Origin: a virus | DNA length: 64,000 nucleotides | Reading direction: 5' to 3' (one strand) | IMG/VR virus record: IMGVR_UViG_3300035698_011202 | Span: 1-64,000 of that record | Position numbers and translations under genes: made by a program | Notes under the pieces: model-generated | What the model was told of the DNA's origin: nothing | Databases searched by the model: none | The model's input: only the letters and a program-made list of their open reading frames with translations | Shown: one piece after another, positions 39,620 through 59,272 of the stretch | Numbering within the stretch: the stretch's first letter is position 1 | How the letters are laid out: every line of letters starts with the position of its first letter

Positions 39620-39953
39620 GCCCGAGTTTCGCCATGACACATAGACCGGCCCTTTCAAATTCCCTTTCAAATTATTAAATATTCATAGCTTTTCGCTTTT
39701 CGCTTTTGGCTCTAGCTTTTCGGTTTGAGGTATGAACTTCTACCTCCGTAAAATCCTAATTTTTTTCAGCTGGAGTGAGGGCACAACCAGACTAAGGTGT
39801 TGTTTCTGTTGACCTTTTTAGCCGATACCCTTAATATATGTGGGTCGGATAAGGAGTCTGGCAGGGGGTGCAAATGTACCCGTTCAAGGCACAAATGTAC
39901 CTTGTTACTTTTAATTAACTCAGGTGGGGACTCCCCACCAAAAGGCAAAAAAA

Positions 39954-40832
39954 ATGACCACATCAAACGTAGTAAATTCAGTAAACGTAGTAAATCCAGT
40001 AAAAGCTAACTTCGAATTTTTACTAAAAAAGGACAAAGAAATTCTGTTCAATAAAGTTGGTTTTGCCGTGACCCTAGTATGTAATGGGTTGGTTGATATA
40101 GGTCAAATTATTGACCATATCGATGCAAGAAATGACGCGAATGGTATCGCTCAAATTGATTCTCAATGTGATGGATTTAGTCAGATTAAAGGTTTTGTGA
40201 AAGACTTCACAAAAAAGCTAGTTGAGTTGGAATTTTTACCAAAAAGTCACTTGAATATTGGCGAATGTAAACCCGCTCAGTTCACTGCTTATGGTAAATT
40301 CTTGCTTGCTGGCGGCACAAAAGACGCGTTTATTAAAAAGTTATCGGCTATGAATGGCGATTACGAACGCGCTGCTAAGTGGAATACTTTGTTAAATTCG
40401 TTCCCAACGCTAGCCGGTTTTGAAGGCGCTGAAGGTCAACCGCCAGTGCTACCTGCTGAAGTCTTAGCATTAGCCGAAAACTTAGAGCGCGACCATGCCG
40501 ATGCGCTGAATATCAACGCGATTTTAATCGCTAACGATAATGCTAAGTTTGATGCCGCATTGGCCATTGTGAATGCTCGGACCAACGCCATAGAAGCTGC
40601 TAAGCAGTCGCTAATTGATGCCGAAGCTTTACCGCTAACAGGTGGGGACTCCCCACTAGAAGCGCCAACCGAAGTGCTAACAGGTGAGCGATTGACCGAA
40701 GTGCTAGAAGCCGTGAACAATAAAGTCTTAACTAATATTGAGCTGTTAATGAATGATTACATCGATGCTAGTTTTGATGCGGTTCAAAAGGCAAAAGTTA
40801 GAAAAATGATGATTGCATTTGCCCAATCGTAA
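39954..40832 (+). CDS. Early hypothetical protein (about 292 aa)
   Basis: Long ORF after hairpin and AAGG RBS; followed by a terminator. Confidence 0.7.
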   Translation: MTTSNVVNSVNVVNPVKANFEFLLKKDKEILFNKVGFAVTLVCNGLVDIGQIIDHIDARNDANGIAQIDSQCDGFSQIKGFVKDFTKKLVELEFLPKSHLNIGECKPAQFTAYGKFLLAGGTKDAFIKKLSAMNGDYERAAKWNTLLNSFPTLAGFEGAEGQPPVLPAEVLALAENLERDHADALNINAILIANDNAKFDAALAIVNARTNAIEAAKQSLIDAEALPLTGGDSPLEAPTEVLTGERLTEVLEAVNNKVLTNIELLMNDYIDASFDAVQKAKVRKMMIAFAQS

Positions 40833-40848
40833 AAACAAATAACCATCC

Positions 40849-40875
40849 AGAACCCGCTGACAAGCGGGTTTTGTT
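40849..40875 (+). terminator. Intrinsic terminator
   Basis: AACCCGCT-GACA-AGCGGGTT followed by TTGTT. Confidence 0.75.
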
Positions 40876-41084
40876 CTCGCGTGACGCATGACGCATGACG
40901 CGTGACTCCCCTTGTACCATTTACTGCCCACCGCTAGGCGCTCACAGTGAGCGCCTTGCTGTGAGCTGTGTATTTTGCTGGGAATAGTAAAACGCGAGAC
41001 AAAAAAACTGGGGCATTTTTGGCCCTATATATCGCGGGAAATTTAATTAACTAACGGTGGGGACTCCCCACTAGGAATATAAAA

Positions 41085-41576
41085 ATGTCTACTTTACAAG
41101 CTAAGCAAATCCTTAAACTAAAAAGCCTTGTAGCTAAGGGTACAGCGTTGTACCAGTTGCACAAAAGCACAACGTTCTTGAAAGGGAGCTACGACAATGA
41201 AGATGGGATATGCGTCGTTGTCCTGCCTATGAAGTGCGATAACGACAACAACTATTATGACATGATAGGTGAAAAGCTCACCTGTGATATGGACTTTCCC
41301 GAAGATGGAATAGCCGTTTCCATGTCTGGCGACGCTAAAGAGCATTATGAATATGTCACTAGCGAGTGGGTTATCTACCCCCTCATAGCCGAGTTAGGGC
41401 TTGTAAAAAGAGTAGATGAAGATGGGAGGCTACACATCGATATACCCAAACTAGACGCGATACCAAGGTTTATGACCGGTGAATTAAACCTTCAAAATTT
41501 TAAGGGTAAGACCGTAGCATTTTGTCAGGCCAGTGGCTTGAGCATTTTGGAAACAGACCTAGCGTTAACCGCTTAA
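41085..41576 (+). CDS. Hypothetical protein
   Basis: AGGA RBS after palindrome. Confidence 0.7.
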   Translation: MSTLQAKQILKLKSLVAKGTALYQLHKSTTFLKGSYDNEDGICVVVLPMKCDNDNNYYDMIGEKLTCDMDFPEDGIAVSMSGDAKEHYEYVTSEWVIYPLIAELGLVKRVDEDGRLHIDIPKLDAIPRFMTGELNLQNFKGKTVAFCQASGLSILETDLALTA

Positions 41577-41624
41577 TTTAATTAACTAACAGTGCGGACT
41601 CCGCACTAACAATTGGAATTGACG

Positions 41625-41807
41625 ATGGAAACAATAGTATTAGTAATACTTGTACTAATCACCTTTTGGCTTGCCCTAATGGTCATTAAAATTACCCTTA
41701 ACGCTGCTTTATCGTACAAAAAACGGGTCACAATTCGCAGAAAGATGTTCATAGCGCGAAAAAAAGCGCGTGAAAAATATTTTAAGCACCTGTTTTTGCG
41801 CGATTAA
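41625..41807 (+). CDS. Small membrane protein
   Basis: N-terminal TM helix, basic tail; starts at TTGACGATG. Confidence 0.65.
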   Translation: METIVLVILVLITFWLALMVIKITLNAALSYKKRVTIRRKMFIARKKAREKYFKHLFLRD

Positions 41808-41939
41808 GGTGGACGGGGGGGATAAAAACGCAGTGCAATTTCACCCCCAAAGTCAACGCGCACTGCTCACCGCTAACATGAATAAGCTCACCGCTAACAT
41901 TCACTTTTTACTTAAATCTTCACAAAAGGGTCTACCACA

Positions 41940-42185
41940 ATGTCCATATTTTCAATAATCGCCAACACGTTTAGCGTCAACAAAACGATGTTATCTGCCT
42001 CAGAAATGCAATTACTGGCATCTATAAATGCGTCTGCCCGTACATTAAAAGCGCAATTAGAGGCCAAAAAATTGGGCGCTCAGCGTGCAAAAGTCCAAGT
42101 AAAAGACTGCTACCGTAGCAATAAAACCCTGTTACGGACTCCTATTAGTACAAAAATTGCACGAAAAGCCCCTATTAATCTATAG
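41940..42185 (+). CDS. Basic hypothetical protein
   Basis: ORF on the expected strand; weak RBS. Confidence 0.45.
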   Translation: MSIFSIIANTFSVNKTMLSASEMQLLASINASARTLKAQLEAKKLGAQRAKVQVKDCYRSNKTLLRTPISTKIARKAPINL

Positions 42186-42728
42186 CTTTGCGGGCTAGGG
42201 TAAATTAGTAGGTTAGTAGCCACTATCGCTTTATGCCGTCATATGTCGGGTCTTGAGAAGAATAAAGTGTACAGAATCAAAAATAGCAGACATTTTTCTT
42301 ATTAAAAACATTATGTATTAATTAGAAATATGAGTGTGATCTAAAAAAGAGCCATCAAAAAAAGAGCCTACAATTTAGTTCCTAAGCGTGACCGCACGAA
42401 AGTCCTCAGGCGACATCCGACAGCTAAGAGTCCAAACGCGCCAACGTCATTGCTGGGCGATTTGACTTTTGCTCCTGTATCGCTCGGTGTTGATATATAA
42501 TTTTATAGATATACCAATGCTTAGGTTGATGCTCGAACGTGTCACCTTGCTATGTTTGCTTTCGTATTTCGGGTATTGTGTCTGCTTAGTTTGCCCGTAG
42601 GGTATGAAGGTATTAAAAAGCTTGCAATATATTATTCTTTGATCGAATAATACTCACAGTAAATCGGGGATTAAGACCTGATTACTATTTTATAGATGGG
42701 GACTCCCCACTAACAATTGGAATTGACG

Positions 42729-43259
42729 ATGACAAACACGACATTTGTATGCTCTCAACGAGCGACGCAGAAAGAGATTTCTGAGATTCGCCTTCAAGTA
42801 TTCACATTGGGTAATCGCCTAAATAATTATCGCATAAATAATGCGGTGCGAGTTCGTGCTGCGTTGGGCGATTTGTTGCTTGCCTCCATACGCCGTGAGG
42901 CTGAGCTGACGGCGTTATTATCCTTCCTTAATACGACGTGTCGTATTCTCAATAAAAAGCCCATAACACCTCACTGTGAGGTTATTACAAGCGATTTAGA
43001 CGATGCGGTGGGTAACATCATTGGATTTAAGAACGATGGCAAGGGTTTCGCCATCATTCCTACATTTAGGGAGTTGGGCGCGGTGTTTGTTCCGACTCAA
43101 TATAAAGTGACGTTGTTGCGTAACACTGATTTCGAAAAGCTTTACATTGTAATGCTAAACGACGAGCTAAAGGCTGACTTTCTAGGCCGCCAGCAGCTTG
43201 TTCAAGAGCATAACGCCCTAGTATTGAGGCATACCCACCTTATGTGCCTCTTAGCTTAA
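42729..43259 (+). CDS. Hypothetical protein
   Basis: Starts at TTGACGATG after palindrome. Confidence 0.7.
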   Translation: MTNTTFVCSQRATQKEISEIRLQVFTLGNRLNNYRINNAVRVRAALGDLLLASIRREAELTALLSFLNTTCRILNKKPITPHCEVITSDLDDAVGNIIGFKNDGKGFAIIPTFRELGAVFVPTQYKVTLLRNTDFEKLYIVMLNDELKADFLGRQQLVQEHNALVLRHTHLMCLLA

Positions 43260-43427
43260 CAGCGAGCGAGTGGGGAGTCCCCACTCAAAACTTAAATTAA
43301 CTTGAAAATTGGAAATTGACGATGAAAAATACTTCGGTATCAAATCTAACCTGTCCTCAGGTGTTCAACTAATGGCGGTCGCTACGTTCGACACTCAGCG
43401 AGAATTAGCTTCTTGGGTGAATAGTTT

Positions 43428-43796
43428 ATGACTGTTCTGATAGGTGAAATGCTGACCCGTGAGCAGTGTTGGCTTGAATATCATGCAAACCGTGATTTTG
43501 AGGCAAGTTACGATGCTTTTGAAATGGGTTATCACTCTGTGCTGGGTCAAAACACCTGTTCGTGGGCTATTCACATTGATGAAATGTCACGCGGTCTTTG
43601 TGATATTTCACGGGAAGAAGCCTTCGACTTAATGGAGGCGCATGAGTGTGAAATCCAGCGAGAATATGACCGTTATGCCCCGCCTGAAGAAACTGAAGAA
43701 GAAGCTCAGGCTTACTTCGAGTTTCACCATCTAAAGCCTGTGACAGCTCCATACTGGCAAGTGTGTGTGGCTAAAATAGACGCGGCTTTAGCTTAG
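43428..43796 (+). CDS. Acidic hypothetical protein, 5' end possibly frameshifted
   Basis: ORF; the upstream motif start at 43322 is in another frame. Confidence 0.5.
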   Translation: MTVLIGEMLTREQCWLEYHANRDFEASYDAFEMGYHSVLGQNTCSWAIHIDEMSRGLCDISREEAFDLMEAHECEIQREYDRYAPPEETEEEAQAYFEFHHLKPVTAPYWQVCVAKIDAALA

Positions 43797-43815
43797 AATC
43801 GGTGGGGACTCCCCA

Positions 43816-43990
43816 CCAATAAAACGGTGTGACACCTGTAAAATTGATGACCAATAAAACGGTGTGACACCTGTAAAATTGACGATGAGAAAACAGTGTG
43901 ACACCTAATAGTGTGACACCTATCAAATTGACGATGTGAACAAACAGCAAGGTTTTTGCCTTGCACTCCAATTAAATTGACGAAGAGATA
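43816..43990 (+). repeat. Composite repeat region: 35-bp duplication, four GTGTGACAC palindromes, several AAATTGACGATG copies
   Basis: Seen directly. Confidence 0.9.
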
Positions 43991-43993
43991 ATT

Positions 43994-45697
43994 ATGACTG
44001 TTATTGCTATGAGTAAAATCGAAGTACAAGCCCACTTTGCAGATAAAATGGACAATTGCCATCCTTTGGTTGCCGATGCGATTAACAATTGCGTTGGCGG
44101 GTTGCAAATCCGATCCGTGTTCAAGCCTGAATTAAACAGAGAGGCGTTACAATCCAAAGTACAGGTAGCTTTGAGAAAGTTGGCTGCCCACCCTATAGGT
44201 GAGCGTAAAAAGGGTCGTATCTTGGGTGAGGGCAGCAGCATGGATTTTAGATTACACCTAAGTATTCATCAAGATACCCCTTATATGGTGAGTAATATCA
44301 ACGAGATTTGGGTCAACTATATGGTCACGGGTGACATGCCTGCTGAGCGGTCTGTGGGCAGTAAGTTAATGCACAAGGGTCGTGTGCCCATTTCTAAAGT
44401 AGTGTCTGATTTCAGTGATGGCTTGTGCGGTATATTTCGCAACCAAGACCAAACGGTCAAGGACTTTATTGCTGAGATTAACCAGTTGGTAAGTTCCAAT
44501 ATATTTGTGATGACTAAAAGTAAGCTCAAGCATCACTATCAAACGTTTGCAAAAACTAAAAATACGACCTCTTGCATGTCAAAGCCTGACGAACAATATG
44601 AGATGGGTGGTGGTCACCCTATCGATTGTTATGAACAAAGCCCAAATATGGCATTAGGTCTAATGATTAGGCCCGATGCGACTTTTTCTGAGGACCATTA
44701 TAGTTTTGCGGGTCGCATGTTTTTCTTGCATAACCTTGAGGGCAAGTTTGTCGGACGTTCCTCGTTTTACGGCAACGAATCTCAAAAAAGGTTCATCATT
44801 GACCAACTCAATGACAGTGGTATCGACAACACGCTTTACGGCGGTTTGCTGAACGTTATCACTAACCACGATAACGAGTTGATGGTGCCATATATCGATG
44901 TATGCCATCAGCCCCATCGTGACCCTCAATCAAATAGATTGCATTGGCTAGCTGACTTGACTGAATTGCAGGACAATAATTGTATGCACTTAATCGACCA
45001 GCAAATGTGGTTGGAAAAAGGTAAAAAGTACCTTTTTATTGGTGAGCCTGAGTATTGTGGTAATGAGCAGTATTTTCATGGAGAGGCCAGTGACCAAGGC
45101 CGCAAAGTATGCCGTTTAGTGGACGTAGACGACGCGCAGCGGTCATGGACTGATTTATCAAAGGGTGTGGTCCTGATATATGTACCAAGCCGTGACGAGT
45201 CGTATCCAGAGGACGAAGTGGTTTATTCCGACTATTCAGACAGCTATATACACGAGGACGATGTAGTTCACTTAGTAACAGGCGAGATAATGCACGAAGA
45301 TGACGAAGGTAACGAGTATGTCCAATGCGATGACAGCGGCGATAACATTCGCATAGATAGGGCAATTCGCTCTGATTACCACGACCGGTGGTATCGAAAG
45401 GATTTGCATGGCGATATTCTTAGTTATTGCTCAGAAGAAGATGACTATTACTTAGACCACGAAGAAGATAACTTTATGGAGTATCACGGCTACGTTCAGG
45501 TTGTTGATATTTACGGTGATAAGGAATGGTCTAAAAACGCGGTGTTTTCTGAGTTTAGAGGTGCCCATCTTGACGGCGATAGCGCCATTTCCACACCCAC
45601 CAATGATTATATCTATTCAGAAGATGTAATCGAGTGGTTAGAGGCCAATGATTCGTACGAGTACGAGTTTGGTGAATTTACAGAAAAAGCAGCATAG
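43994..45697 (+). CDS. Phage protein with SCM motif and acidic C-terminal repeats
   Basis: TSCMSK...HP...SPN...GR...FYGNE...PYID; C-terminal repeats such as VYSDYSDSYIHEDDVV. Confidence 0.75.
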   Translation: MTVIAMSKIEVQAHFADKMDNCHPLVADAINNCVGGLQIRSVFKPELNREALQSKVQVALRKLAAHPIGERKKGRILGEGSSMDFRLHLSIHQDTPYMVSNINEIWVNYMVTGDMPAERSVGSKLMHKGRVPISKVVSDFSDGLCGIFRNQDQTVKDFIAEINQLVSSNIFVMTKSKLKHHYQTFAKTKNTTSCMSKPDEQYEMGGGHPIDCYEQSPNMALGLMIRPDATFSEDHYSFAGRMFFLHNLEGKFVGRSSFYGNESQKRFIIDQLNDSGIDNTLYGGLLNVITNHDNELMVPYIDVCHQPHRDPQSNRLHWLADLTELQDNNCMHLIDQQMWLEKGKKYLFIGEPEYCGNEQYFHGEASDQGRKVCRLVDVDDAQRSWTDLSKGVVLIYVPSRDESYPEDEVVYSDYSDSYIHEDDVVHLVTGEIMHEDDEGNEYVQCDDSGDNIRIDRAIRSDYHDRWYRKDLHGDILSYCSEEDDYYLDHEEDNFMEYHGYVQVVDIYGDKEWSKNAVFSEFRGAHLDGDSAISTPTNDYIYSEDVIEWLEANDSYEYEFGEFTEKAA

Positions 45698-45708
45698 GAA
45701 AATTGACG

Positions 45709-47211
45709 ATGAGTTATACAAGTAAGACCTTTAACCAATTACAGGCTTCAGTTTTGAAGTCTATGGATGATTTAAATCTAGCACCTATAGAAATACTTTC
45801 GTTGACGAAGAACGCAGCTATGAATGCTGCCCAGCGTTACGCAGAAAAGTATTTGGAGGTATCGCTACGTCAAGGCGATCCTTCTCAGATGAAGCGGCTC
45901 CGAGCGTTTATGGATTCAGCTGGAAACTGTTGTTATGACTTCAATATAGTGGGGAGTCCCCACTCAGAAGAGGATGGTGAGTATCGGTTCACTTATAGCG
46001 TTGATTTTGACCGTCAGGACGGCCTGTACCTGCAAAAACGCTCAAAGCGAGGTGTCAGCCTTGGTCGAGTACTTGGTGACTTTGACGACGGCCTGATGCT
46101 CAATCTTCAATTCGATGGCGATACGTATATTCGCAGCTATCACGAGGTAGAAGCATTAAAAACTGAGGGTATGCCCCAAAGCGAGTTGATCAAGTACTTT
46201 GTCAACAAATTCAAAGCACAATCAAAAAATGCTTTTGTGTATTTCACAGACGTTAACATCGACCAACATTACAAATCTTTGTCTCAAGTGCGTGACTTAG
46301 ATACCTGTTTGAGTCGTAAAAACTCACACTACCATCGCAAGGTCAATGGCACCTATTACCACCCATTGCGAACATTAAACAAGTCGCCAAATGTCCGATT
46401 GGCTTTACTATCCAACACTCATCACAGCGAGTGGGAGGACGGCCAGTACCCCTTTGTGGGTCGTTGTTTAGTCAAGATGGACGAGCTAGGTAAGGTCACG
46501 GGTCTATCTCGTTACTATGGTCACGAAAAGTTCAGTCGTGATTCGCTAAGTCAAGCGTTTAACACTAGAGAAGGAGTGCAAGGCGGGGTATTTAAGGCGG
46601 TATATGATGACGAAAACGAATTGATTTTGTTTTTTGCTGACCAACTAACCTCAGATTCTGAAGAGAAAAATGCGGTTTCGTGGATAGATAATCCTAGTCC
46701 TAGATGGTTCGATATTCATGTAGGCCGCGAGTTTTCGTCCCTCAAGAATCGCAAAGATTTACTGGTAATGGGTAATACCAATCGCAGTTTTGGGGTCACG
46801 CCCAGCTTCGATGGCAGGGAAGTGACTACTTGTAGCAATGCTAAGTATGTGCGTAACGACAGACCTAAGCCCGATAAGTATAGCGACTACGTTTATAGCC
46901 TTGAGTATGGCGTAATCAGGGCCAGTAACTACGATTTGACGTTCAATATTGCGCTAAACGACTTTGTAGTAGACGGCGACATACTACACCGCTCAAATAC
47001 GGGGGATGGCATTACGCATTATCACGTAGAGAAAAACTTGTACGTACAAACTATCTTTCACGATTGGGTGTTACGTGACGAAGTGATACTTTTCTTTGTC
47101 GCATATAGCAGTTGCTATGTCCCGATAGATAATGACCTTGGCATCATATACGGTCAAGAAATGGGCACACGAGAACTTGAAGAATTAATAGCTGACACGA
47201 TTGCAGCATAG
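45709..47211 (+). CDS. Paralog of the upstream SCM-motif protein
   Basis: DTCLSR...HP...SPN...GR...YYGHE...FFAD aligns with upstream ORF; starts at TTGACGATG. Confidence 0.75.
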   Translation: MSYTSKTFNQLQASVLKSMDDLNLAPIEILSLTKNAAMNAAQRYAEKYLEVSLRQGDPSQMKRLRAFMDSAGNCCYDFNIVGSPHSEEDGEYRFTYSVDFDRQDGLYLQKRSKRGVSLGRVLGDFDDGLMLNLQFDGDTYIRSYHEVEALKTEGMPQSELIKYFVNKFKAQSKNAFVYFTDVNIDQHYKSLSQVRDLDTCLSRKNSHYHRKVNGTYYHPLRTLNKSPNVRLALLSNTHHSEWEDGQYPFVGRCLVKMDELGKVTGLSRYYGHEKFSRDSLSQAFNTREGVQGGVFKAVYDDENELILFFADQLTSDSEEKNAVSWIDNPSPRWFDIHVGREFSSLKNRKDLLVMGNTNRSFGVTPSFDGREVTTCSNAKYVRNDRPKPDKYSDYVYSLEYGVIRASNYDLTFNIALNDFVVDGDILHRSNTGDGITHYHVEKNLYVQTIFHDWVLRDEVILFFVAYSSCYVPIDNDLGIIYGQEMGTRELEELIADTIAA

Positions 47212-47222
47212 GAAAATTGACG

Positions 47223-48850: not shown

Positions 48851-48897
48851 TTAACTAACTGAGTGGGGAGTCCCCACTCAAAAACTAGGAATTGACG

Positions 48898-49149
48898 ATG
48901 AAACTAAATCACACCACTCCTGCTGTTGGTAGAAAATCCACGCGTGAAAATAAAGGTAGCACTCAGCTTTTTTTAGTGTTGTTTACTAATTTTAATGGGA
49001 TGAAAACCCAAGAAATTGTCAAAGCTTTTAGTTTTGACGAGCTACATTCTTGGATTGAGAAGTTCAAAGCGGATTATGGCCCCCGTATGACTCATAGTAT
49101 CCAACATATTAACAAAGCGCGTATAGCTGACAAAATAAATATTGCTTAA
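48898..49149 (+). CDS. Hypothetical protein
   Basis: Starts at TTGACGATG after palindrome. Confidence 0.65.
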   Translation: MKLNHTTPAVGRKSTRENKGSTQLFLVLFTNFNGMKTQEIVKAFSFDELHSWIEKFKADYGPRMTHSIQHINKARIADKINIA

Positions 49150-49180
49150 ATTAACACCACTCAAAAACTAGGAATTGACG

Positions 49181-49684
49181 ATGACATTAGCAGAACAAAT
49201 ATTAGATAGACTTTTCTCTTTAGACGAGCAGCAAAAGCAAATCCTCGAATTAATTAAGAACTTACCAGCGTCTAGGGACGCTGCATTTGAAGCTGAATTA
49301 CAAGCGATAGTCGAGCCTACGGTTTTACCGCTTATTGAGTTACCTGTGACGTTGCATGAAGCACCTGTGGCTCTTAAAAACTCCCGGCTACTTTTGAGCG
49401 ACATGACTAAAGGCACTAACGCCGCACTTGGCTTGCGATTGCTAAAAAAACACCCTGAAGTATTGGGTAGGATTATAAGGTTGCGTAGAGAAGGCTACTT
49501 GAACGATGACGTCTTTGAGTTTCTTAGCTCTGATTTTATAAATATTCACAAGGAATATCATATTGGAGCCATTATCACAGCGGCAACTCAGGTCAGGTTC
49601 ATGGTAGGACAGACCAAAAACCTAAAAGCCACGGCTGCTTATAGGCGCTTCATCAAAGATTGTGAAGCGGGTATTAAAGTATGA
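49181..49684 (+). CDS. Hypothetical protein
   Basis: Starts at TTGACGATG. Confidence 0.65.
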   Translation: MTLAEQILDRLFSLDEQQKQILELIKNLPASRDAAFEAELQAIVEPTVLPLIELPVTLHEAPVALKNSRLLLSDMTKGTNAALGLRLLKKHPEVLGRIIRLRREGYLNDDVFEFLSSDFINIHKEYHIGAIITAATQVRFMVGQTKNLKATAAYRRFIKDCEAGIKV

Positions 49685-51157: not shown

Positions 51158-51184
51158 CTCACCCAAAACAACTTGGAATTGACG

Positions 51185-51679: not shown

Positions 51680-51695
51680 AAAATTGGAATTGACG

Positions 51696-51848
51696 ATGAA
51701 ACAATCATATGTATGGGTGCCCTCAAAAAACTTCTCTTCATTACTTAGCCTTTGTATCTATTCGATACCGCTGGGCGAGTACATTTTACGCCGTGAAGCT
51801 GTCGTAGACGAAACAGGTCAAGTGACACTAGCGGAGGATTTCGCATGA
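51696..51848 (+). CDS. 50-aa hypothetical protein (not in ORF track)
   Basis: Starts at TTGACGATG; ATGA overlap with next ORF. Confidence 0.65.
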   Translation: MKQSYVWVPSKNFSSLLSLCIYSIPLGEYILRREAVVDETGQVTLAEDFA

Positions 51849-52045
51849 CTGAAGCGGAAGAAATGGACTTGTATGGCGACTCTCGTAGCTCTTTTGAGGC
51901 GTACAGTTTCCAACTTTCCGTCGCCACGGTAAGACGTGAGCATGGAAGTAAAATTACAGGGGGGATGATAGAAATAGCTACACTAGTTAATTATCACTTT
52001 GCTCGAATGAAGCGATTAGAGGTCAAGCCAGAGACTGACGTTTAA
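51845..52045 (+). CDS. Hypothetical protein
   Basis: GGAGG RBS, coupled. Confidence 0.6.
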   Translation: MTEAEEMDLYGDSRSSFEAYSFQLSVATVRREHGSKITGGMIEIATLVNYHFARMKRLEVKPETDV

Positions 52046-52120
52046 GTTAGTCTCTTATCTTTTAACCCCGATGGTGCTTGTTGACGAACAGGCCGCGCCT
52101 ACTTGCGAAAGTGTAGGGCT

Positions 52121-52208
52121 TATTGAGTTGGTGACTTAGTTCAAGCGACGGTTTGAAGAGGTCTATGCGTGAAACGTGGTTCGACTCCACAAAGTCACCA
52201 ACTCAATA
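52121..52208 (+). ncRNA. tRNA-like structured RNA without an anticodon arm
   Basis: 17-bp closing stem, internal hairpin TTCAAGC-GACG-GTTTGAA, T-arm GTGG-TTCGACT-CCAC. Confidence 0.6.
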
Positions 52209-52254
52209 CGTTAAGCGTATTATTTTAGTAATTAACTACAATTAGGAATTGACG

Positions 52255-52434
52255 ATGAGAAATCATTTTGAACAAAACGAGTACGTCCGACTTGTTAACA
52301 GTCCCAGTAAAGTCTACGTGGTAATAGTCCAAAACGGGTCTAGGGTTTCGGTTAAACGTGAATACTACCAGACCCCAGAGGTCGTTGCGTTACGAAGCGA
52401 GATTATTGACCGAAGTTTATTGGAGCGCCTGTAA
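52255..52434 (+). CDS. Small SH3-like hypothetical protein
   Basis: Starts at TTGACGATG; F...EYVRL.....KVYVV. Confidence 0.6.
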   Translation: MRNHFEQNEYVRLVNSPSKVYVVIVQNGSRVSVKREYYQTPEVVALRSEIIDRSLLERL

Positions 52435-53090
52435 TGATAGTAGGAATTACAGGTAAGGCGGGTGTGGGGAAAGACACATTGTTCAAGCTTCTAGCGCCCA
52501 CCTACCCTAATGCTAAACGTTTTGCTTTTGCTGATGAGATTAAAGTGTTGTGCGCTTTGTACTTTGATTGGAAAGAGAGGCATTTAAACGGTTATTTAAA
52601 AGATAAACTAGTTCCCACCAATGGTTCAAAGATAGGGCATAGTCGTTTAAATGCTCGATTGCATATTCTAGCAAAGGCGGTGGGTTTATGTCCTGAGTTA
52701 GTGATTAAGCATTTTTTAGCCGCGTTTAAAATGTTCGAGTTGCGAGGACAGGTAATGCCGCGAGAAGTCATGCAGTATATGGGCACCGAGATAGGTAGAG
52801 TGCTATACACTGATTTTTGGGCCATTGTTTTAATGGCCCAGATACAAAAGTCAGTGGGGACTCCCCACCACTTTGTTACTGATGTTCGTTTCGACAGCGA
52901 GGCTTACGCTATCAAGGCGCAAGGTGGTGTAATTATTCAGATACATCGACCTAATGTACCGGATGTAAGAGAGCATTCATCCGAGTCAGGTGTCCATCTA
53001 ACGCTTATCGACCACATTATTATTAATAGCGAGGATGTGCATTTCTTCAAGCACCAAGCTTTGTCTTTTTTAGGGAAGTTCAATGCCTGA
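52434..53090 (+). CDS. Deoxynucleoside monophosphate kinase
   Basis: GKAGVGKDT P-loop, FADEIK, PREVMQYMGTE..R, TDVRF..E, H.SE. Confidence 0.9.
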   Translation: MIVGITGKAGVGKDTLFKLLAPTYPNAKRFAFADEIKVLCALYFDWKERHLNGYLKDKLVPTNGSKIGHSRLNARLHILAKAVGLCPELVIKHFLAAFKMFELRGQVMPREVMQYMGTEIGRVLYTDFWAIVLMAQIQKSVGTPHHFVTDVRFDSEAYAIKAQGGVIIQIHRPNVPDVREHSSESGVHLTLIDHIIINSEDVHFFKHQALSFLGKFNA

Positions 53091-53412
53091 GCTAACTCAG
53101 TTCTATGGAGCCTTGCAACAGGTAGCAGACTGCCAACTCAAAATGGTGCAGTTAACTAAAGAGTTCCAGGATTTAAAATCGACCTTGAAAATCGCTGTGG
53201 CCCACGTCAACAAGTTAAATCAACCTACCACTGCCCAAGAAAGAAAAGGCTTACCCCCCAAGGGGGCGCAGTACTTTACGCTTGGCTCATATTGGAAGGT
53301 AGACCAATTTAACAGGTTGATGCAGCACACAGGCACTGCTTGGGTTCGCTCACTTAGAGAGCGCAAGCACATCATTAATAAACCGCTTGTTATTTTTAGG
53401 AAAACAATATGA
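53083..53412 (+). CDS. Hypothetical protein
   Basis: Coupled ORF. Confidence 0.6.
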   Translation: MPELTQFYGALQQVADCQLKMVQLTKEFQDLKSTLKIAVAHVNKLNQPTTAQERKGLPPKGAQYFTLGSYWKVDQFNRLMQHTGTAWVRSLRERKHIINKPLVIFRKTI

Positions 53413-53558
53413 TAGTCACTACGCAAACTGCACAAGACCATATAAATTGGATGAACTATAAATTTAATAAATCTCGGATTTATTTAGGTGTAATTATATC
53501 TTTGCAAACCTCACAAGAGCAGTGGTGGAGACACACACAGCGCAATAAAAAGCCATGA
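53409..53558 (+). CDS. 49-aa hypothetical protein (not in ORF track)
   Basis: AGGA RBS, ATGA overlaps at both ends. Confidence 0.5.
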   Translation: MIVTTQTAQDHINWMNYKFNKSRIYLGVIISLQTSQEQWWRHTQRNKKP

Positions 53559-54169
53559 ACAAAGAGCAAAAGTTCCGTCTACGTACTAGTGTGCAGCAGT
53601 GGTCAAGAGAGTATCACGCGCCTTTTATTAGGCCACTGTACAAAGCCCTGTTAGAGCACTATCAAACGCATCATTCAGGCGTTAATTGGAATGTTGCTAT
53701 TGCTCAAGCCAGAGCAGACTTTATAGTAGCAAAGCGGTGGGGTGAGATGACTTGTAAGCAGCGTTCGGTTCGGTTGTATGTAGATGGACTAAACATAGAG
53801 CTTTCGTGTGCTACGGCAGCGTGGGCTTTGATATTTCCTGACTATCTACTGGTCACTTACCCCACGTTCCCTATAGGTAGGGCAGGTAAATTATCGGACG
53901 AATGGAGTCACAGCTGCAATCCTTTTTATTGGCAGCCGAGTCACCTGTGGCACTTGCCAGAGCACGTTTACTTAGCTATGGAAGGCGAGTATGGCCCTAG
54001 AAAAAAAGAGGCTTTAAATCCTAAGAAATACGAGGATTATTATGCGTTGCGAAAAACTTATTGTGAGTATTTCTGTAAATCATATAATCTTAATCCTGAA
54101 GTATTAACCCCTATAATTAACAAGGCAAGGCCGACGCTTCATATTGCGTCGATATTTGAGGTAAATTGA
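53555..54169 (+). CDS. Hypothetical protein, possible degenerate HNH-like fold
   Basis: SHSCNPFYWQPSHL resembles the H.C.N..C.NP.HL pattern. Confidence 0.5.
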   Translation: MNKEQKFRLRTSVQQWSREYHAPFIRPLYKALLEHYQTHHSGVNWNVAIAQARADFIVAKRWGEMTCKQRSVRLYVDGLNIELSCATAAWALIFPDYLLVTYPTFPIGRAGKLSDEWSHSCNPFYWQPSHLWHLPEHVYLAMEGEYGPRKKEALNPKKYEDYYALRKTYCEYFCKSYNLNPEVLTPIINKARPTLHIASIFEVN

Positions 54170-54381
54170 TGACTATAACTAAATTAGAGGGTGTAATGGT
54201 TCTAACTAAACGCTTAGGTAAAACACCCACCTTGGCGCTTGCACAAGAGCTTTTAGACGTGATGTTGGAACTAAATGAAGAGCACAGTGGGGTATTTGCT
54301 AAAGAACAACTTGATGGGGTAATTGAAGTCAGGGACAAGCTAAAAGAGCAAGAAGCTCAAACCAAGGAAAAGAGGCATTAA
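54166..54381 (+). CDS. Hypothetical protein
   Basis: GAGG RBS, coupled. Confidence 0.55.
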   Translation: MMTITKLEGVMVLTKRLGKTPTLALAQELLDVMLELNEEHSGVFAKEQLDGVIEVRDKLKEQEAQTKEKRH

Positions 54382-54415
54382 GCATCAATTAAGCGATATT
54401 CACGTAAAAATTGGG

Positions 54416-54610
54416 ATGACACTCGATTCTTACGTGCATTTTACATATAATGATGGGACTACCCAGCGTTTAATAGAACATTTAGGCGTTACTACCGGAG
54501 GCTGGAAGGCTTTATTGGCTGGGAAGCGAGAAATTACATTAACTGAGTTATTAAAACTTTCGGTTTGGTTTAAAACAGACTTAAACAAGATACTCACAGC
54601 AAACTTTTAA
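54416..54610 (+). CDS. XRE-like HTH protein
   Basis: EHLGVT......LLAGKREITLTELLKLSVWF. Confidence 0.65.
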   Translation: MTLDSYVHFTYNDGTTQRLIEHLGVTTGGWKALLAGKREITLTELLKLSVWFKTDLNKILTANF

Positions 54611-54625
54611 AATTTGGAATTGACG

Positions 54626-55321
54626 ATGATGAATCAAACAAGACAGTTGCCTTCGTATGGGTTACATACAAGCGATCAAGGTATTACCTACTTATTTCAA
54701 GACCTGTGCCCCTATGGTTGGGAGTTTTTAGGACTAAAAAATAGCCGTTCAAATCTGAGCGTCAAACACTTAAAAAACCAATGCCCCCACCAAATTAATA
54801 TGTACTTAGCCCAGCGTGTGCTTAGCAAAAAGGTTTGGGATTCGTTTTGCAGAATTATAAACGATCCTTTAGTCAGAGCTATGCTGCCTTTGCCTAACGG
54901 TAGGACGTATTCTTTTGACCAAAACTCAATAGAAAATTCAACCGAATGGTTTAGCTGCTTAGAGCGATTAGCGTCACCGTTACATACAGGTGTAAAGCCT
55001 TTTTGGGTAGACTCAAATCAAGCTATGGCTAGAAAGCTTACGCTAACAAATATACAGCCTTTGGTCTTAATGGATGTCAAAGCTGAGAATACATTGGATG
55101 TAAGAAGGCTACATGACCTAAATAAAACGTGTCCTAGAACCTTAATTATTAGCTGTACCGAGCAGCTAGTATTAACGCCTTCGGTAGAAGTTATTCAAAC
55201 ACAGCTAGAATCGTTAATATCCTTAAAAGATATGATTTCATTGCCATTAGAGCATATTGGTTCCTATTTAATTGCAGAGCATTGCAAGAGTACCCTTCAA
55301 TTAGAATCTATTACTAACTAG
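54626..55321 (+). CDS. Hypothetical protein
   Basis: Starts at TTGACGATG. Confidence 0.65.
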   Translation: MMNQTRQLPSYGLHTSDQGITYLFQDLCPYGWEFLGLKNSRSNLSVKHLKNQCPHQINMYLAQRVLSKKVWDSFCRIINDPLVRAMLPLPNGRTYSFDQNSIENSTEWFSCLERLASPLHTGVKPFWVDSNQAMARKLTLTNIQPLVLMDVKAENTLDVRRLHDLNKTCPRTLIISCTEQLVLTPSVEVIQTQLESLISLKDMISLPLEHIGSYLIAEHCKSTLQLESITN

Positions 55322-55329
55322 GAGAAAGT

Positions 55330-55668
55330 GTGTCCAACGTAAACATGACCGCATTACGAGTAGCTATATCAGACAGTGGTTTTACACAGTCCGATATATG
55401 TAAAGAATTGGGCATAAAGCAGCCATCGTTATCTAAAAAATTACGTTGTAAAGAAAAGGTTGACGTAATATTTATGTTTAAAGTAATGAAGATTGTTAAC
55501 GCCCCGATTAACGATATTTTTCCAGATTTGCAGGAAAAGTTAGCCAAGGCGTTAACGTTAACACCAGAAAATAACCAACAAGCTTTGAATCAAATATTAG
55601 GGCTTTTAATGTTACAGGCTAATCTAATTGACTATAAAAATACCGAATCAACCGAGATACAATCCTGA
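55330..55668 (+). CDS. Cro/XRE-like HTH protein
   Basis: SGFTQSDICKELGIKQPSLSKKL; AGGAG RBS. Confidence 0.8.
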   Translation: MSNVNMTALRVAISDSGFTQSDICKELGIKQPSLSKKLRCKEKVDVIFMFKVMKIVNAPINDIFPDLQEKLAKALTLTPENNQQALNQILGLLMLQANLIDYKNTESTEIQS

Positions 55669-57097
55669 GTTTGATTTTAACAGGATAATGCAAAACAGAG
55701 AGAAGCTTCAGCTTAGGGATTACCAGAACAAGCATCTATCATTTTTATTAAGCAACCACCGAGCCGGTGATTTAAGTGAAGCAGGGACCGGAAAGTCCCC
55801 AACAGCAGCACTTTGGATTTACGCTCAATCGCAAGATAAACGTGTTATCTGGGTAATGCCTAAGTCTTTACTAGTAAAAAACTACTTCGAGTTACTCTTG
55901 TGGTCAAATTTGACCCCCGACGAAGTAATAATACTAGATGGCAGTATCGGTCAAAGAGCCAAGCAATTAGCTAACAAAACCACGCGTGTTTTTATTATGG
56001 GCTATCAATGCTTTGCAAATAACTGGAATAAAATTGTTGAACAGTTTCCAGATACATATCATTTAGCAGTAGACGAGCATCACTTAGGTTTCTCTACCCA
56101 TTGCCAATACAACTTTCACCAGCGCAAGTACGTTGGGGCTATGAGAACACTAGAGTTTTACCAGTTTTTAAAGCGCGGGGGGGCGCTATTATCGATGACC
56201 GGCACTATGATTTCAGGGAGGCTAAACTCAGCTTACTCATTTATTAACGCGGTTAATCCTAGCTATTACCCTACTTATGAAGCTTTTATGCAGTGGCACA
56301 GCCTTCGAGATGAGTACGGCAACCCGTTTCATTGGAAGAATCACGGGAGGTTGCAAAAAATACTAGATAAACACTCTTGTCGGGTGACATTTGAAGAAGT
56401 ATACGGAAAAGAGAAAAAGGACATGTTTATTCAAATGTGTACGATGAGTCCTAGTCAATATAAGGCTTACAAGGACATGGAAAACAGGCAGATTTCTATG
56501 CTAGGTGACGATTATCTTGAAGCAGATAACGCCGCCGTTGCGATAGCTCATTGCTTTTCGATTATGCAGACTCCCGAAAAGCATGGTTTACCCTGCCATC
56601 CTACGGACTCAAAAGAGGCGCACCTAGAAAACTTGTTAGATGACCACAAAGAAACAGGCCGACCGTTAATTATCTTCGATAAGGCTGTGGATAACCATTA
56701 CAAGGTTGCGGAAATGTGTAAGAAGCGGGGGATGACGCATGGAATTATGAACTCGCGGGAAACCACTGATAGGGGTGTGATGGATTATCAATTTACAGGT
56801 GGACAGATGCAAATCATGATTTGTTCCCCAGCTGTAGCAGGCATAGGATTCAATTGGGGCCACGTAGATGACATGGTGTTCAATAGTTTAGATTGGCAGG
56901 ACTCTACGTTTATCCAGAACTATAGAAGAGCCATGAGGGGCGTTAGAGAGCGTCCACTACGAATATACGTTTTCGTATATCGGGGCGGCTTAGATATTTA
57001 TATTGCTAAGAAGCTAAAAGAAAAATCCAGAAACCGACTAATGGTGGAAGAGGGTGTCGATGTAGAAATCATTGATGCCATATTAAATGCAGTATAA
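55628..57097 (+). CDS. Superfamily 2 (SNF2-like) helicase
   Basis: LRDYQ, GTGKS, DEHH, MTGT, GIGFN, Q..RR..R; exact start uncertain. Confidence 0.9.
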   Translation: MTIKIPNQPRYNPEFDFNRIMQNREKLQLRDYQNKHLSFLLSNHRAGDLSEAGTGKSPTAALWIYAQSQDKRVIWVMPKSLLVKNYFELLLWSNLTPDEVIILDGSIGQRAKQLANKTTRVFIMGYQCFANNWNKIVEQFPDTYHLAVDEHHLGFSTHCQYNFHQRKYVGAMRTLEFYQFLKRGGALLSMTGTMISGRLNSAYSFINAVNPSYYPTYEAFMQWHSLRDEYGNPFHWKNHGRLQKILDKHSCRVTFEEVYGKEKKDMFIQMCTMSPSQYKAYKDMENRQISMLGDDYLEADNAAVAIAHCFSIMQTPEKHGLPCHPTDSKEAHLENLLDDHKETGRPLIIFDKAVDNHYKVAEMCKKRGMTHGIMNSRETTDRGVMDYQFTGGQMQIMICSPAVAGIGFNWGHVDDMVFNSLDWQDSTFIQNYRRAMRGVRERPLRIYVFVYRGGLDIYIAKKLKEKSRNRLMVEEGVDVEIIDAILNAV

Positions 57098-57110
57098 CGA
57101 GGATTAATTA

Positions 57111-57416
57111 ATGACTGCCCTTTCAAAACTAAAAAACTTTGAAGCGTTTGAGCTAAAGCTCACAGATATAGATACTGACGACTCATTGGTAGCGTTGTTA
57201 GTTATTAGTTCACTTTTACAGGTAATTAAGACTGACTCACAGATTACTTCAAAGTCCGATAAAGCTAACATATCTATGATGATAGCGGTGATGGAGAAGC
57301 AGTTTAGAGCTTCGCCAGAAGAGGACAAACAACCAGTACGTTTGGCTCTTTTGGAAAACCTAGAAACTTTTATTAAAGAAATCAGAGATAGTGTTGACAC
57401 ATCTTTGGACTCTTGA
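57111..57416 (+). CDS. Hypothetical protein
   Basis: GAGG RBS. Confidence 0.6.
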   Translation: MTALSKLKNFEAFELKLTDIDTDDSLVALLVISSLLQVIKTDSQITSKSDKANISMMIAVMEKQFRASPEEDKQPVRLALLENLETFIKEIRDSVDTSLDS

Positions 57417-57521
57417 TAAGGTTAGTTTCCATACCGGCAAAGGGTATGAAACCATTGAGAAAACAATGCTAAAAATCAAACCCAACTTAAAATCTAAATA
57501 TGACGAATGAGACATTAAACA

Positions 57522-58349
57522 ATGAACAATAACATCAACGAAATAATCCAAAACGCTAAAAATCAAAACACTGCTGGCATCATTGTAAACGATGACTCTA
57601 AAAACGTTATCGAGCAAAAGATTGCTGAAGTGTCAAATGATAATAGCCATGCGCTCGTTACTAAAGATAATACTAACGAGATGGCTGGTATAGATATGGA
57701 TTCTTTACCCGCTGAGCTAAGAGCCTTATTAATGGGCGGCGCAGCGCCAAGTCAAGAGCTAGGTAACGCTACAAAGACAACGCTAGGTGTCGATACGTGG
57801 TTACAACCATCAGGTATGGGCTTAACCGCTAAAGAGTGCGATGACGTATTAAAGCCGTTCAAAGCCTCCATCGTTTATAGTAAAGGTGATGGTGTCAACA
57901 AAATCAAAACTGTTCAAATTGAGTCGGTATCTCCTACAGGTGATGTTGAAGTGCAATACGTCAGTACTGTCGATGATAAAGGCGAAAAAGGTTCAGATGG
58001 TCGCCCTTGGGGTCTATCAATTGTTGAGGCTTACACTCAGGCTACTCAAAAAGGCCGAAAGTACCCTTACGATTCAGCGCAAATCATATTGATTGCTGAA
58101 GAAGATGTAACAGGCTTTGATGGCGAAGTGTTATTTGAAAAAGGCACTAAGTTCGGACATTCTACGCCGCGTACTGGTTGGAACAACTTTGCTGACCTTG
58201 ACCAAAAAGTAGGTCAATGTGGATTAGTTGGAAAGAAGATACTGGTACAAGTATCTAACGAAAAAGTTCTTATGAAAGGTCGCAAGCCTTGGGGCGTGTT
58301 GGCTTTTGCTTTGATCGGTGTAGCTGAAGACCAAGAAGTAGTCAGCTAG
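57522..58349 (+). CDS. Probable single-stranded DNA-binding protein
   Basis: Position between helicase and exonuclease/polymerase, beta-rich, own terminator; function inferred from context. Confidence 0.5.
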   Translation: MNNNINEIIQNAKNQNTAGIIVNDDSKNVIEQKIAEVSNDNSHALVTKDNTNEMAGIDMDSLPAELRALLMGGAAPSQELGNATKTTLGVDTWLQPSGMGLTAKECDDVLKPFKASIVYSKGDGVNKIKTVQIESVSPTGDVEVQYVSTVDDKGEKGSDGRPWGLSIVEAYTQATQKGRKYPYDSAQIILIAEEDVTGFDGEVLFEKGTKFGHSTPRTGWNNFADLDQKVGQCGLVGKKILVQVSNEKVLMKGRKPWGVLAFALIGVAEDQEVVS

Positions 58350-58378
58350 TACCTTTAAACACTACGAATATTACTCAT

Positions 58379-58401
58379 AGGGGCTTTTAAGCCCCTTTTT
58401 T
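58379..58401 (+). terminator. Intrinsic terminator
   Basis: AGGGGCTT-TT-AAGCCCC followed by T6. Confidence 0.8.
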
Positions 58402-58418
58402 GACTACGGAAATTGACG

Positions 58419-59228
58419 ATGAAAATAGAATGTATTGATGGCAACAACGTGTTGCGCCGGTTAGTTGAGGCTGAGGGTGTAACGGTCACCAAGTCTTTGT
58501 ACAATATTGCTTGCATGGACTCCCCCGACCTACAAATTATATGGGTGTGGGATGGTAAAGACGGCAACAAAGTCCGTCGAGAAATCTTTCCCGACTATAA
58601 AAAGAAAGCTGAGGGCACAGGTACGCCAGATAGCTTTTACGAATTTATGAACAACTTCAGAACATTGCTCAATCACAGTAATTGTTTGCAGATACGCGTA
58701 GACGGCTTTGAGGGTGATGATGTTATCGCTCAGATTGTAGCGTTACGCGATGCCGGTCAGAAGATAGAAATCAACTCTAACGACCAAGACTTCAGGCAGT
58801 TAGTTAGCAATAACGTCACTTTAGAGTACATGGCACCTAAGTTTTCAGGCTACTCAGCATCCGACATGCGCTTAGCTAAGACTTTAGTAGGCGATAGTGC
58901 GGATAACATAAAAGGATTGCCTCGTTTTGGGTTGAAATCCTTCGAGAAACTTACGCCTACGCAGCGTGATAGCTGGGTAGATTTGTTAGAAGACGATGCT
59001 ATCCAATTAAGCCCCGCTCACCTTGAAGGTATGCCGGATGCTTTGGGGCTGTCAAAAACCCTCTCGCAAGTCACCTTAGACAACATCGATTTGCTACGCG
59101 CTTACTACACCATCATTGGGTTTATGCCTATCCCTATAGACGTGTTTGCAAGTAGCTTTACGATGGGTGACGGAGACACCAAAAAAGGTGGTGAGCTTCT
59201 TAATGACATGTTCATGCTAGAAATTTAA
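58419..59228 (+). CDS. 5'-3' exonuclease / flap endonuclease
   Basis: IDGNN, WDG, R.EIFPDYK, FEGDDVIA, SNDQDF, LVGD.ADNIKG; starts at TTGACGATG. Confidence 0.92.
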   Translation: MKIECIDGNNVLRRLVEAEGVTVTKSLYNIACMDSPDLQIIWVWDGKDGNKVRREIFPDYKKKAEGTGTPDSFYEFMNNFRTLLNHSNCLQIRVDGFEGDDVIAQIVALRDAGQKIEINSNDQDFRQLVSNNVTLEYMAPKFSGYSASDMRLAKTLVGDSADNIKGLPRFGLKSFEKLTPTQRDSWVDLLEDDAIQLSPAHLEGMPDALGLSKTLSQVTLDNIDLLRAYYTIIGFMPIPIDVFASSFTMGDGDTKKGGELLNDMFMLEI

Positions 59229-59272
59229 GTGCTGAGTGGGGACTCCCCACTCAATTACAATTTGGATTGACG

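Follow-up and report, generated by a model that had tools for sequence, protein, structure and literature searches.

What is a short GC-rich palindrome doing at a dozen places among the early genes of a temperate phage, mostly in the gap before the start of the next gene? The question is raised by the IMG/VR record IMGVR_UViG_3300035698_011202, a linear viral record of 72,231 bp with a CheckV completeness of 89%, the first 64 kb of which form the window analysed here. The palindrome, GTGGGGASTCCCCAC, has nine exact copies in the window and none in 100 shuffles, and at up to two mismatches there are eleven, compared with a mean of 0.04 in dinucleotide shuffles. These are the eleven listed in the first-pass annotation, and all of them lie between 39924 and 59250; a twelfth, exact copy is situated at 71318, outside the window and directly before an excisionase-like open reading frame (ORF). 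The twelve copies are spread over 31 kb, all within the plus-strand early arm, and none was found in the 36-kb minus-strand structural arm, so that the early-arm limit proposed earlier is upheld. The centre base is C in nine copies and G in three, the two forms being reverse complements of each other. Nine of the twelve are intergenic and the other three (40642, 45949, and 52854) are inside ORFs, as had been reported. The window copies, with their distances in nucleotides (nt) and the associated ribosome binding site (RBS) motifs, are as follows.

39924..39938, plus strand: copy 1, centre C; intergenic, with an AT box TAATTAACT from 39912 and the ATG at 39954 15 nt on
40642..40656, plus strand: copy 2, centre C; inside ORF 39954-40832, frame 1
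41057..41071, plus strand: copy 3, centre C; intergenic, with an AT box at 41042-41055 upstream and the ATG at 41085 13 nt on
41592..41606, plus strand: copy 4, variant GTGCGGACTCCGCAC; AT box at 41577-41590, RBS motif, ATG at 41625
42696..42710, plus strand: copy 5, with A for the first G and an outermost A-C pair; RBS motif, ATG at 42729
43270..43284, plus strand: copy 6, centre G; AT box 3' of the hairpin, as in relatives, and RBS motif at 43316
43802..43816, plus strand: copy 7, centre C; followed by a cluster of four GTGTGACACCT repeats
45949..45963, plus strand: copy 8, centre G; inside ORF 45709-47211, frame 0, encoding VGSPH
48863..48877, plus strand: copy 9, centre G; AT box at 48846, RBS motif, ATG at 48898
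52854..52868, plus strand: copy 10, centre C; inside the dNMP kinase ORF 52434-53090, frame 0, encoding VGTPH
59236..59250, plus strand: copy 11, centre C; intergenic, with the DNA polymerase A ATG (59273) 22 nt on

The palindrome is the stem-loop module of an intercistronic cassette composed of an AT-rich stop box, a GC stem-loop, and an RBS/start motif, GGAATTGACGATG. The sequence TAATTAACT is present upstream of copies 39924, 41057, 41592, and 48863, and an AT box TTTAATTAACTAAC or a near variant lies 5' of four copies, with TAA in all three frames in three of the four boxes. Three boxes are delimited below.

41040..41055, plus strand: AT-rich stop box of 16 nt, identical to 41575-41590, with TAA in three frames; left arm of a direct repeat
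41575..41590, plus strand: AT-rich stop box, right arm of the same direct repeat
48846-48861: AT box TTTAATTAACTAAC, with TAA in every frame

On the other side of the hairpin, TTGACGATG is found 13-31 nt past the stem end in six copies (41592, 42696, 43270, 48863, 59236, and 71318), and the stem end is 13-22 nt 5' of an ATG in seven of the nine intergenic copies (39924, 41057, 41592, 42696, 48863, 59236, and 71318). The two other intergenic copies depart from this arrangement, in that 43270 has an AT box between the hairpin and the start motif, and 43802 precedes the repeat cluster. Both halves of the cassette had been recognised in the first-pass annotation, and both are recovered here. We considered the AT box as a three-frame stop, but the relatives described below have TAA in only two frames, and the occurrence of all three in three of the four boxes is probably incidental. 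Over the whole record TTGACGATG itself has 20 plus-strand and nine minus-strand occurrences; almost all of them mark the start of an ORF, and they are found in both arms. The start motif is therefore general, with the hairpin an early-arm add-on.

We also note several features of the cassette and its surroundings. The start-associated motif has the fuller form GGA(A/G)(A)TTGACGATG (e.g. 41615-41627, 45699-45711, and, on the minus strand, 30988-31000), it is used too by the relatives G001-G005 and KB12-38, and its conservation exceeds what a Shine-Dalgarno (SD) sequence requires, which may be compared with the start-associated sequences (SAS) of Cluster K. A full start motif after hairpin 43270 (43316-43372) opens an ORF of 16 codons only, and the next long ORF, at 43428, is without the motif. 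The GTGTGACACCT repeat, with a 9-bp palindrome as its core, is present in four direct copies within 93 bp (43826-43921) and nowhere else in the 72-kb record; positioned between hairpin 43802 and the ORF at 43994, this looks like an operator or iteron cluster. There is also a truncated cassette, of which 27 nt are identical to 48871-48900.

49148..49183, plus strand: cassette remnant, with the hairpin 3' arm, spacer, and RBS/start motif, without the 5' arm

All eleven window copies are predicted to form one hairpin with a 6-9 bp stem and a 3-nt loop, with energies from -8.7 to -16.4 kcal/mol: copy 1 folds at -13.6 kcal/mol, copy 9, in which the palindrome arms reach 10 bp with the flanks TGA/TCA, at -15.9 kcal/mol, and copy 11 at -16.4 kcal/mol. 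The compensatory double change previously pointed out at 41592 is real, with mirrored G>C and C>G substitutions in GTGCGGACTCCGCAC that convert the fourth pair from G-C to C-G, and this variant folds at -10.4 kcal/mol, with none of 200 shuffles as stable. It is, nonetheless, the one compensatory event in this genome, and the earlier description of the copies as covarying is not confirmed in the form given; the first flanking pair is purine...pyrimidine in all 12 copies, and Watson-Crick in seven, compared with 6.3 expected from the purine and pyrimidine frequencies. The longer flanks, GA/TC and TGA/TCA, look like the remains of a longer ancestral palindrome, not independent covariation.

The same slot is occupied in related phages by palindromes of other sequences. 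Five uncultured relatives (G001-G005) were compared whole, together with Pseudoalteromonas phage KB12-38, the nearest named relative (terminase identity 48%), and with G006-G010 and Mystique as the outgroup. KB12-38 has two families, GGGGTAACGTTACCCC in ten copies (34-60 kb) and GGGCTGACTCAGCCC in four (55-77 kb), all intergenic and on the early strand, and each then followed by TTAATTAAACTAAAAC and GGATTGACA..ATG. The G004 family is GGTGGGG-N4-CCCCACC, in about 11 copies, G003 and G005 have GGGGGA-N6-TCCCCC, and G001 has GGTGGGTAA-N2-TTACCCACC plus one GGGCTGACTCAGCCC; no palindrome family was seen in G002, a 41% complete fragment. In KB12-38, G001, G003, G004, and G005 the order within the slot is stop, hairpin, AT box, and start motif. 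Every family has a G-run and then a C-run, with arms that are near-invariant within a genome and altered on both sides between families, and with loops of 1/3, 4, or 6 nt across families. The centres vary and are not themselves palindromic, and with respect to the genes they are found either way round (AACT/AGTT in G004 and GAACAT/ATGTTC in G003/G005). Palindromes are confined to the early arm in every genome examined. Polymerase identity is 99% for G003 and G005, 86% for G004 and G003, 64% for KB12-38 and G001, and 55-56% for this phage and G003-G005. At an orthologous intergenic site G003 and G004 have different families despite 86% polymerase identity, which shows that the families change in concert genome-wide, and the arm GTGGGG/CCCCAC is common to this phage and G004 at 56% polymerase identity. 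No G-rich hairpin families were found in the six distant phages (G006-G010 and Mystique), and a metagenome scan for the hairpin together with the start motif gave 0 matches, in a scanned set that may lack near relatives. We note that the outgroup genome G010 (64% GC) contains at 46-65 kb ten copies of TTTAAC-S-GTTAAA, a few bases 5' of start codons on the minus strand. This multi-copy dyad repeat parallels the present one but is unable to form a stable hairpin.

That the repeats could be points of exchange for early gene cassettes had also been suggested, and the evidence supports this for the cassette as a whole, as a site of gene-cassette gain, loss, and swap. Contigs of four salt-lake DNA runs were aligned to 39500-59400, and in two of the runs a contig joins 41039 to 41575 across the 16-nt AT-box direct repeat, with unique sequence on each side of the joint (52 nt and 1.7 kb), giving a deletion variant without hairpin 41057 and ORF 41085-41576. 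The last base of hairpin 1, 39938, is exactly where homology to a diverged allele breaks off, and a loose end from a further run falls at the same base. The segment 40603-40659, with copy 40642, is swapped for 67 other letters in variants X1 and X2, and in one contig the hairpin and start motif at 48863-48900 are common and then a different gene follows. Other candidate rearrangements were set aside. The shorter side of a joint from 48874 to 49158 (run X5) is 27 nt, the same 27 nt that are common to both places, and shows no deletion; a joint from 52258 to 59264 (side 21) and loose ends at 42697, 42734, and 52258 are cross-mapping of the 71318 cassette.

The related phages G003 and G005, with 91-95% DNA identity, differ in a similar manner. 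Seven of 24 homology-break boundaries, taken from 12 gaps with one more gap at the record ends excluded, lie at most 25 nt from a hairpin or start motif, compared with 3.1% of the sequence (binomial P = 5.5e-6). Most of the cassette breaks are at the start motif and one is at a hairpin, and 25 nt of the start motif are repeated in direct orientation on the two sides of one indel. In another gap, a hairpin cassette in G005 corresponds to 15 nt in G003 between the same two genes, and the hairpin would therefore be a modulator rather than an essential signal. The hairpin-zone ORFs of G004 are mostly unshared.

Two genes encode proteins that are plausible readers of the palindrome, one for RNA and one for DNA.

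67344-67835 (record coordinates): FinO/ProQ-domain ORF, 163 amino acids; Pfam PF04352, E 3.9e-10, 40.1 bits compared with a cut-off of 27
55330..55668, plus strand: Xre-type helix-turn-helix (HTH) ORF, 112 amino acids, overlapping the SNF2 helicase start; candidate DNA-binding partner

The FinO/ProQ-domain ORF has weak matches to NMB1681 and ProQ, and the gene is present in all seven clade phages and in none of the six outgroup phages. The HTH ORF is weakly HipB-like (E 0.006), and its positional homologues have the same distribution (7/7 and 0/6). In an alignment by eye, phages of different families never have the same putative recognition helix, and those of G003 and G005 are identical to each other; the G003 and G004 homologues are only 50% identical, whereas neighbouring genes are 76-85% identical. 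The three HTH ORFs of this phage were also considered as conserved regulators and discarded as such, there being no tblastn match in the relatives, and only 55330 has positional homologues. Both of these co-occurrences, of the FinO/ProQ gene and of the HTH gene, rest on a single clade.

Several classes of known signal were compared with the copies and did not match. A sigma-70 promoter with the hairpin in a 19-20 bp spacer (MerR-like) is not common to the copies, and the same holds for TTGACG taken as a -35 and for TAAAAT, from the cassette of the relatives, taken as a -10; the spacing is also wrong for sigma-54. A central GANTC, as a methylation or restriction site, holds here and in the GGGCTGACTCAGCCC family but not in other families, and a Chi-like GGTGG is present only in copies with a G flank. 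Rfam covariance models gave 0 matches in 36000-64000 at E up to 1. The first-pass annotation had named a REP-like repeat, widespread in the host chromosome, as the finding that would count against a phage signal. At least 120 bacterial stretches match the motif, taxonomically scattered and with one site each among the 80 listed, and 21 other viral contigs have it, at one site per contig; the palindrome does not appear to be a widespread repeat of the repetitive extragenic palindrome (REP) or miniature inverted-repeat transposable element (MITE) kind, although the host is not identified and the scan is not exhaustive.

There are several plausible models to consider, and the one we lean towards, tentatively and at rather less than an even chance, is that the palindrome is a hairpin that acts in the early transcript. 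Within a long rightward early transcript the element would fold into a G-run/C-run hairpin of 6-9 bp with a 3-nt loop, which would weaken read-through, cap the ends of processed mRNAs next to the AU-rich box, or do both, with the result that expression could be set gene by gene and each RBS insulated from its upstream neighbour. The hairpin may be bound by the clade's own FinO/ProQ-type RNA chaperone, and the cassette would punctuate the variable, ORFan-rich early region in a clade of temperate KB12-38-like siphoviruses. This is supported by where the element lies, after a stop and ahead of an RBS on the strand that is transcribed as one long operon, by the stable folds predicted, the compensatory change at 41592, the two-sided arm changes, the variable loops, and the G-run/C-run rule, and by the clade-specific FinO/ProQ-domain gene. 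A number of observations weigh against it. The hairpins are not canonical terminators, as a stem-plus-T-run scan is passed by one of the eleven window copies (52854) and the sequence past the stems is not U-rich. G-T closures are present (n=3), as had been reported for two copies, although the bias towards plus-strand RNA that they seemed to imply is absent, because they are balanced by A-C closures (n=2, plus the A-C inside 42696); a census of G-U and A-C pairs across six genomes was set aside as an indicator of strand, since registers overlap in the G003/G005 family and what looks like a mismatch there is a perfect stem in another register. The near-invariant arms in each genome, and the retention of one arm in G004 at 56% polymerase identity, are not predicted by a constraint on structure only; they point to sequence-specific recognition, for which a DNA operator is an equally good fit or a better one. 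The only bases at the centre are C and G, as a conserved central C:G pair read from either strand would give, and two of the in-gene copies encode the same pentapeptide, VG(T/S)PH, with no insertion, which suggests selection on the exact sequence. The co-occurrence with the ProQ-type gene amounts to one evolutionary event, because a single clade is concerned, and the HTH gene has the same pattern. Finally, none of the ten sequencing runs found to contain the stretch is an RNA run. A more specific proposal seems to us improbable, namely that a post-transcriptional regulon encoded by the phage has the hairpins as its cis sites and a FinO/ProQ-type chaperone as its reader, with or without a second specificity factor. 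If it were true, a dozen early mRNAs would have a genome-specific hairpin read by the chaperone, which would control how stable these mRNAs are or how they are translated; the reader would evolve together with the hairpin families, and close relatives would be regulatory 'heterotypes', an RNA-level counterpart of immunity groups.

Alternatively, the site could be read as double-stranded DNA, with the 17-bp dyad R-GTGGGGA-S-TCCCCAC-Y an operator bound by a dimeric phage regulator, either the candidate Xre-type HTH protein or another repressor, and with the many sites silencing or timing the early arm as roadblocks or as a global operator. We regard this as doubtful taken singly, but as nearly as likely as a hairpin in the transcript. 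Multi-copy repressor sites are familiar in temperate phages, as in the L5 stoperators, the phiC31 conserved inverted repeats, and the P1 C1 operators, and family switching between close relatives would correspond to changes in specificity, as in immunity groups. The phage is temperate, KB12-38 has an integrase and an excisionase, and G004 is classed as a provirus. An operator would be consistent with conserved inverted half-sites at fixed spacing within a genome, with nearly invariant arms around centres that vary and occur in both orientations, with a flank rule that is purine...pyrimidine and not Watson-Crick, and with a centre that is always a C:G pair, as well as with the concerted switch between G003 and G004, the single arm sequence kept across the deep divergence of this phage and G004, and the exact copies within conserved coding sequence, which are not insertions: a 58% identical homologue of the dNMP kinase has TGTPH at the place of copy 52854, without a gap. 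The distribution of the HTH ORF, a helix that tracks the family, and its divergence between G003 and G004 relative to its neighbours point the same way, and a similar 17-bp repeat was read by the authors of the Cluster O study as a likely dimer-binding site (PMC4351075). On the other hand, promoter-like sites are not enriched in 36000-55999 (36 found, compared with 41.1 +/- 6.1 in shuffles), and by reading there is no shared sigma-70 -35/-10 beside the eleven window copies. The mirrored double change at 41592 would hit both half-sites, and is what a hairpin predicts, the loop length varies by family from 1 to 6 bp, and there is no obvious reason for a DNA-binding protein to require a G-run and then a C-run in all families. 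A separate, classical-looking operator or iteron cluster exists in the four GTGTGACACCT repeats, and the HTH link depends on gene position and the alignment by eye, given the lack of tblastn matches in the relatives for the three HTH ORFs.

Two further explanations have less to recommend them. It is unlikely that the palindrome is a non-regulatory repeat, homogenised by cassette recombination or by quasi-palindrome template switching and travelling harmlessly with the RBS/AT-box cassette. Cassette recombination is frequent, a truncated copy exists at 49148-49183, and hairpin gain or loss between G003 and G005 and the loop inversions would fit template-switch mutation; but there is unique coding sequence to the left of each hairpin, so that short-patch conversion would have to proceed without homology on one side, and a harmless repeat does not sit well with an arm kept in this phage and G004 despite saturated divergence, with copies strictly in the early arm of each genome though the RBS motif is in both, or with exact copies created inside conserved coding sequence. 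Least probable are the classical signals, either Rho-independent terminators or the N4-type promoters mentioned in the first-pass annotation, that is, single-stranded DNA hairpins used by a virion RNA polymerase. N4 hairpin promoters have a 5-7 bp stem and a 3-nt loop, a geometry that the 6-7 bp stem and 3-nt loop here resemble; the stem is GC-rich, and CTTTTAATT follows the hairpin in some relatives. However, the T-run is present in one of the eleven window copies, and ordinary hairpin-plus-T-run terminators are used elsewhere in the phage (e.g. before 58413 and 25609). The suggestion of an N4-type promoter also fares poorly, in that no match to a single-subunit RNA polymerase (PF00940) was found in the record, which is weak evidence as the control was also silent, the one giant ORF (2681 residues) looks like a tail fibre, three copies are in genes, and the copies are spread over 31 kb and are not at the injected genome end. 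What probability remains belongs to something we have not considered.

The organisation of the record is that of a temperate siphovirus related to KB12-38. Structural genes are on the minus strand at 1-36372, including those for the portal and major head protein, and replication and early genes are on the plus strand from 36384 onward. The principal landmarks are these.

12188-15934, minus strand: central tail fibre
18566-24931, minus strand: tape measure
34135-36372, minus strand: large terminase
36920-39319, plus strand: primase
59267-62158, plus strand: DNA polymerase A, with the ATG given at 59273

The plus-strand arm also contains an ORFan block and genes for the dNMP kinase, SNF2 helicase, and a 5'-3' exonuclease, and 3' of the window are an origin-binding helicase, the FinO/ProQ-domain ORF, a RecU-like resolvase, SbcCD, an excisionase-like HTH, and an integrase fragment. 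The last two, at the right end of the record, show that the phage is temperate. Among the ORFs at 39954-49684 an M28 peptidase is the sole Pfam or PHROG family, and the hairpin zone is thus the ORFan-rich, poorly shared part of the early arm. Megablast found no near-identical phage records, and the DNA sequencing runs containing the stretch are labelled salt lake metagenomes. The 2681-residue ORF (3090-11135, minus strand) has no Pfam or PHROG match; repeats within it, runs of ATN, and motifs like those of fibres point to a tail fibre of great length. The terminase ORF and the first plus-strand ORF are divergent with only about 12 bp between them (36372-36384), and there is therefore no normal divergent promoter region common to both arms at this place. 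A 600-bp gap at 39320-39953 contains a strong terminator-like hairpin (39585-39613), and looks more like an early control region than does 36372-36384.

The clade offers a comparative series in which the slot is constant and the family differs between phages at 56-86% polymerase identity, and it provides natural variants in which the differences in gene content are located exactly at the cassettes. Because KB12-38 is cultured, with a named Pseudoalteromonas host in its record, the choice between RNA and DNA is accessible to standard experiments. In practice this would yield a rule by which the boundaries of genes and the exchange of cassettes could be read in temperate phages that have not been cultured. 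Dyad repeats that are multi-copy and specific to a phage are known from several earlier accounts, among them the promoter-early stem-loops of T4-type phages, and no function has been found for those of Cluster O or for the extended SAS (ESAS) of Cluster K.

Comparison with known systems places the cassette among several partial likenesses. The operators of L5, phiC31, and P1 are similar in having many conserved copies in short intergenic regions of temperate phages, with a sequence that is specific to the phage or immunity group; stoperators and P1 operators, in contrast, are asymmetric and orientation-dependent, and the sites here are not at promoters. FinO/ProQ ligands are hairpins with a 3' tail, mostly terminators, and FinO domains are described as reading structure and not sequence (PMC9977716). 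A stable GC hairpin, single-stranded flanks, and a FinO/ProQ-domain gene in the genome are in accord with this, but the U-tail is missing and a reading of structure would not explain the fixed arms. The promoter-early stem-loop (PeSL) cassette of T4-type phages is closer in its layout (PMC2839356, PMC4122927), with an upstream stop in an AT-rich stretch, a stable stem-loop that is often of the G-run/C-run type, and an SD and start at its 3' end, to which correspond here an AT box with stop codons, the hairpin, and a GGA-type SD with an ATG; the PeSL stem-loop varies in position within the cassette, and inter-copy recombination shuffles cassettes in ORFan-rich hyperplastic regions. The T4-type G-run/C-run stem-loops cut reporter expression like a strong terminator (PMC2839356). 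However, PeSL includes a consensus sigma-70 early promoter, which we could not detect here, the stems of PeSL do not share a single fixed sequence, and the PeSL phages are virulent myoviruses. Because the defining promoter is missing, we have not assigned the element to PeSL.

The Cluster K SAS is a start motif conserved beyond pairing with 16S rRNA, about half of the examples having an inverted repeat just upstream (the ESAS), and its function is given as unknown (PMC3203893). The combination of a start motif and an upstream inverted repeat, with the repeat only in the non-structural half, is shared with the present cassette, and the ESAS consensus varies between subclusters as the families do between relatives here. 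The ESAS arms differ in being 17 bp, imperfect, and 4-13 bp apart, whereas those described here are 6-9 bp and perfect, and the start motif of this phage is in both genome arms. Judged by its anatomy, the nearest match is the 17-bp repeat of Cluster O mycobacteriophages, TGTTCGG-N3-CCGAACA, whose function is given as unknown (PMC4351075). It too has 7-bp inverted arms about a short centre, arms invariant per genome, and a centre in both orientations; most of its copies lie in short gaps between genes of the non-structural arm and some are in genes, it is absent from the host, and inter-copy recombination explains indels between related phages. It differs in host phylum, in its unrelated sequence, and in number (34 copies there and 12 here), and it is not of the G-run/C-run type, nor is it tied to an RBS/AT-box cassette. 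The five Cluster O phages have one common sequence, whereas here close relatives differ in family. Thus the type of cassette has already been seen in other phages, and what is new is that one slot is filled by a series of families, each specific to its genome, that these families switch in concert, and that there are two candidate readers.

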